A DNA stretch of 64,000 nt from Escherichia coli (GTDB lineage: Bacteria > Pseudomonadota > Gammaproteobacteria > Enterobacterales > Enterobacteriaceae): the NCBI RefSeq assembly GCF_003334315.1, contig NZ_QOWR01000023.1. The stretch is one strand, 5' to 3'. The translations under genes and the position numbers were made by a program. Each line of letters begins with the position of its first letter. The stretch's first letter is position 1. The notes under the pieces were generated by a model that had not been told where the DNA came from, ran no database searches, and worked only from the letters and a program-made list of their open reading frames with translations. Shown here one piece after another: positions 16,365 to 64,000 of the stretch.

Positions 16365-19542
<3,178 letters not shown>

Positions 19543-19832
19543 GGTTCTCTCCCTAAAAATCTGTCTGGCAGGGTAGCGATTTGTGCGCATTGTCACGATT
19601 GAGATTTTTTAAGGTGAGGGGAAATTGATAACTTGTAGTTATGTGAAATCGCTATTTTCTGTAGCAGAGATGCATTCTTCTGACTTCTTGTCTGAGAAAA
19701 TGCATAAGAAAAAATAGGTTAAAACTGAGGGGGGAAAAGAAAGGTGCAATATTTAGCCATTGTGTTCACTGCACCTGGACCTTGGCTTACGCATCGGGTG
19801 TCTCAATCAACAAAAAGAGTTTTTAGTTTCTG

Positions 19833-50184: not shown

Positions 50185-50428
50185 TGCGACAACCTCATAC
50201 TCAAGAGTCAAAATTTGCGTAATTTTACTACAGCTGAATCGATAAAATAGCCTCTGAAGATCAAAATATACGACCGCTCGCGGCAAGCCGATGCCAGATT
50301 TACGCTTTTTTTTCGTCGCGCCCCGCAAAATTGCATTCCAGTTAACGCGCTGGCTGTATTTGCCGCACCGCGCAGGTATACTCCTTTCCTGGTTTTTTTA
50401 ATCACTACGTCGGGAGTTGTTACCCCCC

Positions 50429-59284: not shown

Positions 59285-59872
59285 TTACTTTTGAAAGGCT
59301 TTTTTTAAGCTGATTTTGGAAATCAGCTCAGTCAGTGAAAGGACCATTGTTGATCGCACAGCCTGTTGATAGCGCTGAATTTGCATTGCATACAAACTGG
59401 AGTCTGCTGGTTCAAACTGTGGCGGCGGTGGTAACGCCGCCACGCAGTGCAGTTCACCAAAGGGTCCAAGGATTTCGTCGTCGGTAAAGGCGTACTCGTT
59501 GCCGTCGTGATTTAGCTCTTCACGCAATGCCATCAGCAGTTCCGCATCTTCGTATTCCTGGCGGTTAATGACGCCCAACCCGTAAATGAGTTTTAAACGC
59601 ACAGAAAGATCGCCCAGCGGACCATCGCCGTCGAGTAACGGTTCTACAGCATACTTCACCGCGTAATCGTCTTTGCGGAATACCTGAAGCACCAGAAGAT
59701 TTACCGCCTCGGTCAGGAGCTCGACGGCGGTGATCAGAAAGCTTCGCACGGTTTTGCCAGCATTCAGACGCTCAAGCACACGGTTTTCAAAGGCCTGGGT
59801 TTGTTCCATTGTTGCCTGCATATCTGACAATCTGTTATTCGGGCGCAGGGTGTCCTGCGCCTGGTCCACCAT
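59285..59872 (-). CDS. mtlR: mannitol operon repressor MtlR
   Basis: ORF track 195 aa; immediately downstream of mtlD. Confidence 0.92.
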   Translation of the reverse strand: MVDQAQDTLRPNNRLSDMQATMEQTQAFENRVLERLNAGKTVRSFLITAVELLTEAVNLLVLQVFRKDDYAVKYAVEPLLDGDGPLGDLSVRLKLIYGLGVINRQEYEDAELLMALREELNHDGNEYAFTDDEILGPFGELHCVAALPPPPQFEPADSSLYAMQIQRYQQAVRSTMVLSLTELISKISLKKAFQK

Positions 59873-61020
59873 TATTGCATTGCTTTATAAGCGGTTACCG
59901 CCTCGGATACAACCTCGCTGTTGGCATCAAGACCGGAAATCTGTGCCAGCGCCGCCTGCGGACCTTTGTCAGCGATCAGTGCTGCCAGTTCCTGAGCCTG
60001 CGGATCATCTTCACTGCGGAAGTGCATTGCAGCGGCAATACCTTCAATCAGGTTTTTATGTGGCAGACCATATTCCAGCGTACCGAGCAGTGGCTTGATC
60101 AGACGGTCGCCAGCACTCAGTTTACGCAGTGGCTGACGGCCTACGCGCTCTACATCATCTTTCAGATACGGGTTCTCAAAACGGCCGAGAATTTTCTGGA
60201 TGTACGCCGCATGCTTGTCAGCGTCAAAGCCGTAGCGCTTGATCAATACTGCACCACTTTCTTCCATCGCACCTTTTACCACCGCGCGGATTTTCTCGTC
60301 GAGAATCGCGTCACGAATGGTCTGATGACCGGCCAGTTTTCCGAGGTACGCGGTTATAGCATGACCCGTGTTCAGGGTGAAGAGTTTACGTTCGACAAAT
60401 GCCATCAGGTTGTCGGTTAACTCCATGCCTGGGATGTTCGGCAGTGCGCCTTTGAACTGCGTTTTATCGACAATCCATTCGCTGAAGGTTTCTACCGTCA
60501 CTTCCAGCGGATCGTTAGTTGCCGAAGCCGAAGGCGGTACGATGCGGTCAACGGCGGAATCGACAAAGCCAACGTGTTCTTCTACCCACGCTTTGGCGTC
60601 TTCCGGCAGGGCGTTCATCACATGGCCTTTCAGCTGCGTGGTACCGCGTACCATGTTTTCACAGGCGATGATGTTCAGCGGGGATTCATTACCTTGTTCT
60701 TTACGTTTCACCAGCCCTTTGGCGATTGCCGGAGCAATACGTTCCAGCACAACCGGGCCAACGGCGGTAGTGACTAAATCAACCTGAGCAATCAGATCAA
60801 CGACATCATCACCAATGCTGCTGACAGCATTGACGCCGGAAACGGTATCTACCTGCTCGGTTTCACCAACCACATGTACCTGATAGCTATGACGGGCATT
60901 CAGGGCATCAAGTACCACCTGATTGACATCGGCAAACGTCAGTTGGATACCCGCGTCTGCCAGCAGTTTACCGATAAAGCCACGACCGATATTACCTGCG
61001 CCAAAATGTAATGCTTTCAT
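59872..61020 (-). CDS. mtlD: mannitol-1-phosphate 5-dehydrogenase
   Basis: ORF track (488 aa with a long upstream extension); known start [20 protein letters not shown] at 61020. Confidence 0.95.
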
Positions 61021-61039
61021 AGTATTAACCTTCATCAAT

Positions 61040-61215
61040 GTTTTTACCCGAGAGGGCTGGGGTGAGGCTTTTCCCTCACCCAAACCCTCTCCGTGAGGAG
61101 AGGGGCAGCGCCGGATGCGGCGTAAGCGCCTTATCCGGCCTACAAGAACGTGCAAATTCAACAAATTGTGATGCATCCTGTAGGCCTGATAAGCGTAGCG
61201 CATCAGGCAATTAAC
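61040..61215. repeat. intergenic repeat cluster between mtlA and mtlD: GC-rich CCCTCACCC/CCCTCTCC-type unit plus a REP pair
   Basis: GGGTGAGGCTTTTCCCTCACCCAAACCCTCTCCGTGAGGAGAGGGG followed by GCGCCGGATGCGGCGTAAGCGCCTTATCCGGCCTACA and the inverted copy TGTAGGCCTGATAAGCGTAGCGCATCAGGC. Confidence 0.7.
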
Positions 61216-61249
61216 CCCACCTTCTCCATGTGGAGAGGGTGGGATTGGA

Positions 61250-63163
61250 TTACTTACGACCTGCCAGCAGTTCCAGCACTTCATCCACGCTGGTGGTGTG
61301 TGCCAGACGCTCGATGACGGACTCATCATCCAGTGCATTGGTCAGGCTGGTGATAACCTGAATGTGCTCGTTGTTACGGGCAGCAATACCAATCACCAGA
61401 CGGGCAATGTCATCTTCTTCTTCACCGAAGCGCACGCCTTCCGGGTACTGGCAGAACACGACGCCCGTTTTCAGTACGCGATCTTTCGCTTCAACCGTAC
61501 CGTGTGGCACCGCGATAGACTCACCCAGATAAGTCGGGGTCAGTTTTTCACGATCCAGCATCGCCTGAACGTATTCCGGCTCAACGTAACCGCCTTTCAC
61601 CAGCTGCTCGCCAGCAAAACGAATCGCTTCTTCTTTGGTTGCCGCTTTGCGACCGAGGAAGATGTTCTCCGCGCCTAGCTTGAACAGGTTAGCACTGGAA
61701 TCGTCAAAGCTGTCTTTCAGGCTGTCTTTTACTTTCTCTTCGTTTGCCGTGTGGCGTTGGGCAGCAACCAGACGTTCGGTCAGGCTGGTGTACAGGCCGC
61801 TGTCGAGGAAGTTGGTCAGCGAAATATGCTGTGCCTGCGGAACCTGGCGCATAGCGCGTTCGGTCAGGTCACGGTGAGTGATGACGAGGTCCACATCTGG
61901 CGGCAGGTTGTTGATCGCGCTGTTAGTAACAGAAATCTGCGACAGACCTGCATCCTGAATTTTCTTACGCAGAACGCCTGCGCCCATCGCACTGGAACCC
62001 ATACCGGCGTCACAGGCAACGATGATTTTACGTACGTGGCTCAGGTCGTTAGTCACATCGCCAGCAGACAGCGGAGATGCGCCTTTAGACTCAGCTTTCA
62101 TGTCCTGCATACGACGAGTTGCTGCTTCAATATCATCTTCTTCTTTCACTTTGCTGGTTTTCAGCAAAATAGCAGAGACAACGAAGGAGACAGCCATCGC
62201 CGCACACACACCCGCGATGTTAGCGAAGTAAGCACCTTTTGGTGTCATCGCCAGTACAGCAAGGATAGAACCCGGAGATGCCGGAGAAACCAGACCACCG
62301 CCCAGGATAGTCAGCGTGAACACGCCAGTCATACCGCCGAGGATGACTGCGAGGATCAGACGCGGATTCATCAGCACATACGGGAAGTAGATTTCGTGGA
62401 TACCCCCCAGGAAGTGGATGATTGCCGCACCGCCCGCAGACTGTTTAGCGCTACCACGACCAAAGAACATGTACGCCAGCAGCACGCCCATACCTGGACC
62501 TGGGTTAGCTTCAATCAGGAAGAAGATTGATTTACCCAGTTCATGGGACTGCTGAATACCCAGCGGCGAGAAGATACCGTGGTTAATGGCGTTGTTGAGG
62601 AACAGGATTTTCGCCGGTTCAACAAAGATAGACGCCAGCGGCAGCATGTCATGGACAACCATGAAGTTAACGCCCGCAGCCAGCATTTTGGACAGGGCTT
62701 CAACAATCGGGCCAATGCCGAGGAATGCCAGAATAGCGAGGATCATCCCGATGATGCCTGCGGAGAAGTTATTCACCAGCATCTCAAAACCGGATTTGAT
62801 CTTACCGTCTACCCAGCGGTCGAAGTGCTTAATGCACCAGCCGCCCAGCGGACCTGCAATCATAGAACCGAGGAACATCGGCATGTCTGCGCCGACGATA
62901 ACGCCCATGGTGGTGATGGCACCGACTACGCCGCCACGTTCGCCGCCTACCAGCTTACCACCGGTATAACCGATCAGCAGCGGCAGGAGATAAGTGATCA
63001 TCGGCCCGACCAGCTTCGCCAGCGTCTCGTTCGGTAACCACCCTGTTGGAATAAATAACGCGGTGATGATACCCCACGCGATAAACGCGCCGATATTTGG
63101 CATCACCATGTTGCTGAGGAAACGACCAAAGCTTTGCACTTTGATCTTAATATCGGATGACAT
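61250..63163 (-). CDS. mtlA: PTS mannitol-specific EIICBA component
   Basis: ORF track 637 aa; [32 protein letters not shown]. Confidence 0.96.
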
Positions 63164-63299
63164 AAAAACACCCCTTCTTATGTTTGCTGTCGCGCAGGCT
63201 GGAAGCCCGAGGTTTTTTGTTAATGTGGCGGCAGAGGTAGCCGGACCTTGTAGATACTGCGAAATCTGGCACTGAATCGGTTAACTGTCCAGTCGACGG

Positions 63300-63530
63300 C
63301 CTTTTGTGTGATATCAATCACATAAATATAGGGGGTAGAGAGGTAATTGACGTGACGTTCATCACAAAACGCTTGTGTAAAAAAGCAACAAGGCGGCGAT
63401 TTTCGCTAAAAATGGCATTTAAATGTGAGTAGTGTCACATTTTTGTTTTGATGGTTTGTTGAATCTTTGTGATCTGAATCACAAGATATTTTCTTACGGC
63501 GTTCACCTGATGTGATCTACAGCATGTTAT
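63300..63530 (-). promoter_or_regulatory. mtlA promoter/operator region with a cluster of CRP-type TGTGA-N6-TCACA palindromes
   Basis: TGTGATATCAATCACA (63307-63322), TGTGAGTAGTGTCACA (63424-63439), TGTGATCTGAATCACA (63468-63483), and the inverted-order TCACAAAACGCTTGTG plus a half-site TGTGATCTACAG. Confidence 0.7.
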
Positions 63531-63699
63531 GCCTTCGTCATACAATCGTTATGTAACTAAGCAACTCATCACCTCTAAAAATTATTCTTTGGTGTTATGG
63601 CGAGAATCGCGAACCCGGATTATTGTCAAAATATCAGCCTGACTCCCTTCTGGCTGCCAGCCCAAAAACAACACTGATAAACGTGAATCCGAGGCAGAT

Positions 63700-64000
63700 A
63701 TGTTTCTAAACTATTTCGCGTTGGGAGTGCTGATCTTCGTCTTTCTGGTGATTTTTTATGGAATCATCGCGATACATGACATCCCTTATCTGATTGCCAA
63801 AAAGCGCAACCATCCCCATGCCGACGCTATTCATACGGCGGGCTGGGTGAGCCTGTTTACTCTGCATGTTATCTGGCCGTTTCTGTGGATCTGGGCGACG
63901 CTCTATCAACCGGAGCGTGGCTGGGGTATGCAGTCACATGTTGCGTCGCAGGAGAAAGCGACTGACCCGGAAATCGCCTCACTTTCTGACCGAATTTCCC
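63700..64000 (+). CDS. yibI: inner-membrane protein YibI, 5' part (runs off the window end)
   Basis: ATG at 63700; translation MFLNYFALGVLIFVFLVIFYGIIAIHDIPYLIAKKRNHPHADAIHTAGWVSLF... has no stop before the window end, so it is missing from the ORF track. Confidence 0.8.
   Translation, partial: MFLNYFALGVLIFVFLVIFYGIIAIHDIPYLIAKKRNHPHADAIHTAGWVSLFTLHVIWPFLWIWATLYQPERGWGMQSHVASQEKATDPEIASLSDRIS

Follow-up and report, generated by a model that had tools for sequence, protein, structure and literature searches.

Near the end of the 64,000-nucleotide stretch of E. coli DNA analysed here (the window), the spacer between mtlA and its divergent neighbour yibI contains a close-packed group of inverted repeats that resemble binding sites for cAMP-CRP. 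This raises the question of what the repeats are, which of the two genes they serve, and what is meant by the distances between them. The genes concerned are as follows.

61250–63163, minus strand: mtlA, mannitol PTS enzyme IICBA, the regulated gene (open reading frame, and annotation in matching E. coli genomes).
59872–61020, minus strand: mtlD, mannitol-1-phosphate 5-dehydrogenase (tblastn, 99.7% identity to K-12 MtlD).
59285–59872, minus strand: mtlR, repressor without a DNA-binding domain (tblastn, 100% identity to K-12 MtlR, 195 aa; function from PMC13421365).
63700–64000, plus strand: yibI (DUF3302), the divergent neighbour, clipped by the window end and not part of the system (annotation; ATG at 63700).

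Because mtlA is on the minus strand with its ATG at 63163, upstream here means higher coordinates, and the CRP sites described below are located 151–355 bp upstream of that ATG. The mtlA-yibI intergenic region (63164–63699, 536 bp) is base for base that of K-12 MG1655 (100% identity by alignment). A query spanning 63100–63760 was matched in 5405 of 5426 complete E. coli genomes, several of them at 100% identity; the strains matching at 100% include several that are not K-12, one of them O157:H7, and the operator is invariant between those strains and K-12. Published data on the K-12 mtl operator therefore apply directly to this DNA. Likewise, since the encoded MtlR is identical to that of K-12, its residues R167 and L178 are present.

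An Rfam search of 60900–64000 (E ≤ 1) gave no match within the mtlA-yibI intergenic region, and a leader RNA or sRNA as the source of the palindromes was rejected on that ground. The sole match of that search falls elsewhere in the operon, on a REP-type palindromic element in the mtlA-mtlD intergenic region (61073–61140), and is a sub-threshold one to the Rfam REP/naRNA4 model (38 bits, gathering score 59.5); this element swells a spurious 488-aa open reading frame that stretches mtlD upstream.

The exact pattern TGTGA-N6-TCACA occurs three times in the 64 kb, at 63307–63322, 63424–63439 and 63468–63483. All three matches belong to the cluster and fall within 180 bp of each other, compared to an expectation of 0.08 for the whole window, and none of 100 shuffles got to three. 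When one mismatch is allowed the sole extra match is CGTGACGTTCATCACA at 63351–63366, although the resulting total of four in the window is not itself significant (1.9 expected; at least four in 10 of 100 shuffles). The window was also scored with a symmetric 22-bp CRP matrix, built from 17 classical footprinted sites and approximate in its absolute bit scores, which gives back the consensus AAATGTGATCTAGATCACATTT; the exact-pattern search is independent of this matrix. Five sites were recognized, named here from the promoter-distal to the promoter-proximal end as in the published operator.

63304–63325, no strand, centre 63314.5 (-58.5 from the transcription start): CRP5, TTGTGTGATATCAATCACATAA, promoter-proximal and possibly class-I-like; exact core, 17.5 bits.
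63348–63369, no strand, centre 63358.5 (-102.5): CRP4, TGACGTGACGTTCATCACAAAA; one core mismatch, 14.0 bits.
63421–63442, no strand, centre 63431.5 (-175.5): CRP3, AAATGTGAGTAGTGTCACATTT, the best-scoring site in the window; exact core, 19.4 bits.
63465–63486, no strand, centre 63475.5 (-219.5): CRP2, CTTTGTGATCTGAATCACAAGA; exact core, 12.6 bits.
63508–63529, no strand, centre 63518.5 (-262.5): CRP1, TGATGTGATCTACAGCATGTTA, degenerate; TGTGAtctacaGCATG matches at 7/10 core positions, 11.1 bits.

The 17 training sites span 4.4–17.0 bits (median 14.3), and none of the five scores (11.1–19.4 bits) falls below that range; five of the six top matrix scores of the window fall in this cluster. Five sites of at least 11 bits thus lie within 230 bp, compared with a largest cluster of two in 200 first-order Markov simulations of 64 kb. 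The intergenic region is richer in AT than the window as a whole (42% versus 50% GC), and 2000 simulations at its composition averaged 0.08 sites per 536 bp and never exceeded two.

An earlier reading of this DNA, made from the sequence only, had pointed to a dense CRP-like array in the mtlA control region and proposed a CRP matrix scan as a check; the high scores bear it out, albeit from an approximate matrix. Its description of the sites as three near-perfect and two degenerate is right in the total of five, and the cores are more precisely three perfect, one with a single mismatch (9/10 positions) and one degenerate. It further described TGTGAGTAGTGTCACA as a perfect inverted repeat. This is true of the 8+8 arms of CRP3, AAATGTGA and TCACATTT, which are 8 nt long and 100% complementary with all 16 arm positions fitting the 22-bp CRP consensus, and not of the 16-mer, whose central GTAGTG is not self-complementary.

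A sixth CRP-like element, TGTGTaaaaaaGCAAC, centred at 63381.5, was left uncounted as it scores below 9 bits; it coincides with a conserved T-tract block discussed below. Outside the cluster, the third best matrix score of the window (14.2 bits) belongs to an isolated match, ATTTGTGCGCATTGTCACGATT, at 19579–19600, on the 5' end of yicG towards the yicG-dinD spacer. Inside yicG, at 19420–19441, is a weaker match (10.3 bits).

The mtl operator of E. coli is described as having sites CRP1-CRP5 at -262.5, -219.5, -175.5, -102.5 and -58.5, with distances of 43, 44, 73 and 44 bp (Lee et al., NAR 2026, 54:gkag751, PMC13421365, following Ramseier & Saier 1995, Microbiology 141:1901). The centres found in the window, taken from high to low coordinates (63518.5, 63475.5, 63431.5, 63358.5 and 63314.5), give 43, 44, 73 and 44 bp, exactly as published. 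The array is thus the known E. coli mtlADR operator itself and not merely similar to it, and as such is already known. The sequence-only reading had held that the mtl promoter has multiple CRP sites and suggested a comparison with the mapped ones; both the statement and the comparison hold, the inter-site distances being those of the five published sites. Site identity, scores, statistics, spacing and conservation are taken here from our own analysis; that CRP binds, that MtlR bridges and which sites are required is taken from the literature.

That literature is extensive. On the K-12 mtl operator, which has the same sequence as the window, CRP binds in a cAMP-dependent manner by EMSA, and CRP is needed for mtl expression and for growth on mannitol (PMC13421365). 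Among the CRP-bound clones from genomic SELEX, the yibI-mtlA spacer ranked second in abundance (Shimada et al.), and ChIP-exo shows Cra and CRP signal at mtlA (PMC5888115). When CRP2, CRP4 or CRP5 is replaced in the chromosome, both mtl expression and growth on mannitol are lost; replacement of CRP3 causes a mild decrease, and replacement of CRP1 has no effect; EMSA and mutant data agree that CRP1 is poorly occupied and dispensable (PMC13421365). We have very little doubt that the five sites form the cAMP-CRP operator-promoter of mtlADR and that they both activate the operon and anchor MtlR. Nothing in the sequence of the window contradicts this explanation.

The anchoring function is where the spacing enters. 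MtlR supershifts CRP-DNA complexes only when two occupied CRP sites are 43–46 bp apart, and MtlR binding is gained when either the malK sites or CRP3-4 are moved to a distance of 44 bp (both by EMSA, PMC13421365). In the window this distance separates CRP4 from CRP5 (44 bp), CRP2 from CRP3 (44 bp) and CRP1 from CRP2 (43 bp), and the cognate MtlR is encoded in the same operon. By their sequence and spacing CRP4/5 and CRP2/3 would be the MtlR-docking pairs, 44 bp each, the ternary complex being known from published EMSAs. The MtlR substitutions R167E and L178A abolish both binding and repression, and the arrangement given for MtlR, CRP and DNA is an AlphaFold3 model, not an experimental structure (PMC13421365). 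An earlier study from the same laboratory detected no MtlR-CRP interaction without DNA. The sequence-only reading had taken the spacing of one site as a sign of cooperative or repressive use; the suggestion holds, in that 43–46 bp recruits MtlR (PMC13421365), although the spacing matters between neighbouring sites and is not the property of a single one.

The mechanism drawn from the literature agrees with this anatomy and runs as follows. At high cAMP, CRP dimers would occupy CRP2, CRP3, CRP4 and CRP5, with the weak CRP1 mostly empty, and bound CRP would activate a poor sigma-70 promoter, TGGACA-N17-CAGATT. CRP5, at -58.5, would act in class I fashion, whilst the role of the sites farther upstream would be architectural and dependent on helical phase. 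One MtlR dimer is envisaged to span a pair of DNA-bound CRP dimers whose centres are 44 bp apart (CRP4/5 and CRP2/3), and such bridging would block the contacts between CRP and RNA polymerase, so that the activating sites would double as the anchor of the repressor. Further repression may come from the putative Cra box between the promoter hexamers. Mannitol transport would dephosphorylate EII-Mtl (MtlA), whose IIB domain would then hold MtlR at the membrane and bring about derepression; in the presence of glucose, dephospho-HPr would compete for MtlR and restore repression. The last two steps follow the reports that dephosphorylated EII-Mtl sequesters MtlR at the membrane with mannitol and that dephospho-HPr competes on glucose (PMC13421365).

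The elements of the core promoter and the Cra box we infer from their sequence and position. Back-calculation from the published positions of the CRP sites puts the transcription start at about 63256 on the minus strand, with a 93-nt leader to the mtlA ATG at 63163, and the elements are placed accordingly.

63286–63291, minus strand: probable -35 hexamer TGGACA, read from the sequence and placed via the presumed transcription start; kept in Enterobacteriaceae.
63263–63268, minus strand: probable -10 hexamer CAGATT, 3/6 to consensus, with a 17-bp spacer; from sequence and conservation.
63271–63284, plus strand: putative Cra (FruR) box ACTGAATCGGTTAA, at -15 to -28 between the -35 and -10 hexamers; exact match to RSTGAAWCSNTHHW.

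A simple sigma-70 consensus scan did not pick up the mtlA promoter TGGACA/CAGATT, as is expected for a weak, activator-dependent promoter. Together with a terminator scan it gave only two candidates, both rejected as chance: an ATGACA/TATGTT promoter match over the mtlA start, which is on the wrong strand, and a terminator-like hairpin at 63285–63299, which is simply the -35 region. In class I CRP promoters the site is centred near -61.5 (or -71.5, -82.5 or -92.5). By the published S1-mapped start, CRP5 at -58.5 is 3 bp off the canonical -61.5; the hexamers are weak, and the start comes from old S1 mapping. Lee et al. put the mtl promoter in class III (PMC13421365).

The sequence RSTGAAWCSNTHHW matched by the putative Cra box is the Cra consensus reportedly given by Ramseier et al. 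1995. Exact matches to it number two in the 64 kb, against 0.53 expected, and the box at 63271–63284 is kept within Enterobacteriaceae. Cra repression of mtl has been reported (PMC13421365; PMC5888115), in line with this assignment. The other exact match in the window, GCTGAATCGATAAA at 50233–50246 on the plus strand, falls between the divergent genes gpmM and yibN, some 45 bp ahead of the likely gpmM start, and probably serves as the Cra site of that gene.

We then turn to the distribution of the array in other species. Species-representative genomes were scanned with the first 200 residues of MtlA, yielding 80 loci of which 79 were usable. These are mostly from Enterobacterales (Escherichia, Citrobacter, Salmonella, Klebsiella, Enterobacter, Cedecea, Hafnia, Serratia, Rahnella, Pectobacterium, Providencia, Edwardsiella and others), with one from Tolumonas. 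The 650 bp upstream of mtlA in each of the 79 were scanned with the matrix at a cut-off of 9 bits. The CRP2-3-4-5 arrangement, with all four sites at 9 bits or more, was found in 75 species; in the remaining four a GTGA-N6-TCAC core is positioned exactly 44 bp from CRP4, scoring 3–7 bits. Conservation at other enterobacterial mtlA promoters, on which the sequence-only reading had staked its case, is thus evident, with the sites kept upstream of mtlA in 79 other species.

CRP2 and CRP3 are 44 bp apart in 74/75 species, and so are CRP4 and CRP5 (also 74/75). The CRP3-CRP4 distance is 73 bp in 67 loci and 72–74 bp in 74/75, with Edwardsiella having 63 bp. CRP1 reaches 9 bits in only 30/75 species, 42–43 bp from CRP2 and with low column conservation, which matches its reported weak occupancy and dispensability. 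In an ungapped stack of 68 sequences the CRP core columns carry 1.4–2.0 bits and most spacer columns about 0 bits; CRP5 can be anywhere between 128 and 185 bp from the ATG. Since the spacers have diverged and the CRP5-ATG distance is variable, the constant spacing reflects a constraint on length and not a lack of divergence. The finding of 44/73/44 bp in about 75 species, from at least 40 genera, widens the operator comparison of PMC13421365 from four species to a broad Enterobacterales sample.

The core promoter differs by family: Enterobacteriaceae have TGGACA/CAGATT with the Cra box, and the others have a GTGnTAGAGT motif without it. The Cra box was seen in Escherichia, Salmonella, Klebsiella and Enterobacter. 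Outside Enterobacteriaceae the core promoter reads GGTACGCG ... GCGTGnTAGAGTC, resembling an extended -10, just downstream of CRP5, and the CRP array is unchanged (loci L027, L028, L046, L047, L061, L064, L069 and L072–L078).

These comparisons bear on whether the array, or at least its distal sites CRP1 and CRP2, might mainly control the divergent yibIH and not mtlA. CRP sites in divergent spacers often serve both promoters, as noted by Shimada et al., in whose list the SELEX peak has both yibI and mtlA as its neighbours. CRP1 is dispensable for mtl, is found 181 bp ahead of the yibI ATG, and reaches 9 bits in 15/27 loci with yibI versus 15/52 without, a difference that is confounded by phylogeny. 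However, a YibI homologue is found upstream of mtlA in only 27/79 species, and the CRP2-5 array is kept with its spacing in all 79; because it persists whatever the upstream gene, the array belongs to mtlA. Moreover, mutation of CRP2, CRP4 or CRP5 abolishes mtl expression (PMC13421365), and the consensus scan showed no sigma-70-like promoter facing yibI. We consider main control of yibIH very improbable, although CRP1 or CRP2 may have a secondary effect on yibI.

It is also conceivable that the repeats are operators bound directly by MtlR or by another protein of the Crp/Fnr family, and not by CRP. The repeats were historically candidate mtl operators, and multicopy promoter DNA titrates an MtlR-dependent repressor activity, as found in an earlier study from the same laboratory as PMC13421365. 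Against this, MtlR has no DNA-binding domain and gives no DNA shift alone, and CRP binding to the repeats depends on cAMP and is required for the MtlR supershift (PMC13421365). The half-sites are GTGA/TCAC, of the CRP type, unlike those of FNR. FNR half-sites are of the type TTGAT-N4-ATCAA. The likelihood of direct operators is therefore slight in the extreme. Chance matches without function, such as the short palindromes common in AT-rich intergenic DNA, could account for the unremarkable one-mismatch count, but hardly for three exact cores within 180 bp where simulated clusters never exceed two sites, for sites and spacing conserved in 79 species when the spacer sequence is not, or for the published binding and mutant data (PMC13421365), and their probability is negligible.

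With the five sites accepted as the CRP operator-promoter of mtlADR and as the anchor of MtlR, some features of the alignment are left over. The 73-bp gap between CRP3 and CRP4, about seven helical turns, is near-invariant though its sequence has diverged, and two blocks within the spacers are conserved.

63455–63460, minus strand: AACAAA block, in the middle of the CRP2-CRP3 spacer and 18.5 bp promoter-proximal of the CRP2 centre; 1.4–1.9 bits per column in 68 species.
63375–63390, minus strand: TGT-N2-T6/7-ACAC block, TGTTGCTTTTTTACAC, within the 73-bp gap from CRP3 to CRP4; shared by Enterobacteriaceae and Serratia.

The conservation of the AACAAA block equals that of the CRP core columns, and the block is retained in Serratia, Pectobacterium and Hafnia. 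It could be an alpha-CTD or UP-like contact, or a bend element; an offset of 19 bp is seen in class I CRP-alphaCTD-DNA complexes. The TGTTGCTTTTTTACAC block has a G-N13-C frame about an A-tract and is loosely Fis-like; as a CRP site it scores below 9 bits. The constraint on the 73-bp gap is unaccounted for by the MtlR-docking model, which concerns only pairs 43–46 bp apart, and together the gap and the two blocks are a small addition, absent from the discussion in PMC13421365.

We offer one speculative suggestion, which we think is rather unlikely to be right as it stands: that the operator has a component beyond its five CRP sites and the docking geometry, and that the 73-bp gap and the two blocks are contacts of a further component in a single phased, looped nucleoprotein complex. 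This component could be the alpha-CTD of RNA polymerase docked beside CRP2, Fis, or an intrinsic bend. For activation from the far-upstream sites CRP2-4, Lee et al. suggest looping or anti-silencing (PMC13421365). A phased, looped complex, if true, would account for the need for the far-upstream CRP2 in activation, which PMC13421365 leaves open.

Among known systems, the K-12 mtlADR operator is the same locus, with an identical 536-bp intergenic region, identical spacing of 43/44/73/44 bp and no operator differences. The CytR-CRP complexes at deoP2, cdd, udp and other promoters share with mtl a repressor placed between or on two tandem DNA-bound CRP dimers as an anti-activator, with the CRP sites serving both activation and repression. 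However, CytR recognizes an operator of its own through a LacI-type DNA-binding domain, and its CRP sites are about 52–53 bp apart, whereas MtlR is without a DNA-binding domain and reads only the 43–46 bp geometry. The malK/malE region, with its class III CRP arrays, resembles mtl in that a weak promoter is preceded by several tandem CRP sites, which build a higher-order nucleoprotein structure; it differs in that the malK sites, with their 34-bp spacing, recruit MtlR only once they have been re-spaced to 44 bp, and in that activation needs MalT. Mlc and dephospho-EIICB-Glc (PtsG) parallel the induction of mtl, in that a repressor is captured at the membrane by the dephosphorylated IIB of its cognate PTS transporter with resulting derepression, although Mlc, unlike MtlR, binds DNA directly via its own operator and uses no CRP scaffold. 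Set beside these systems, the mtl operator is one in which a single transcription factor is both the activator and the anchor for a DNA-blind repressor, and specificity lies solely in the distance between sites.
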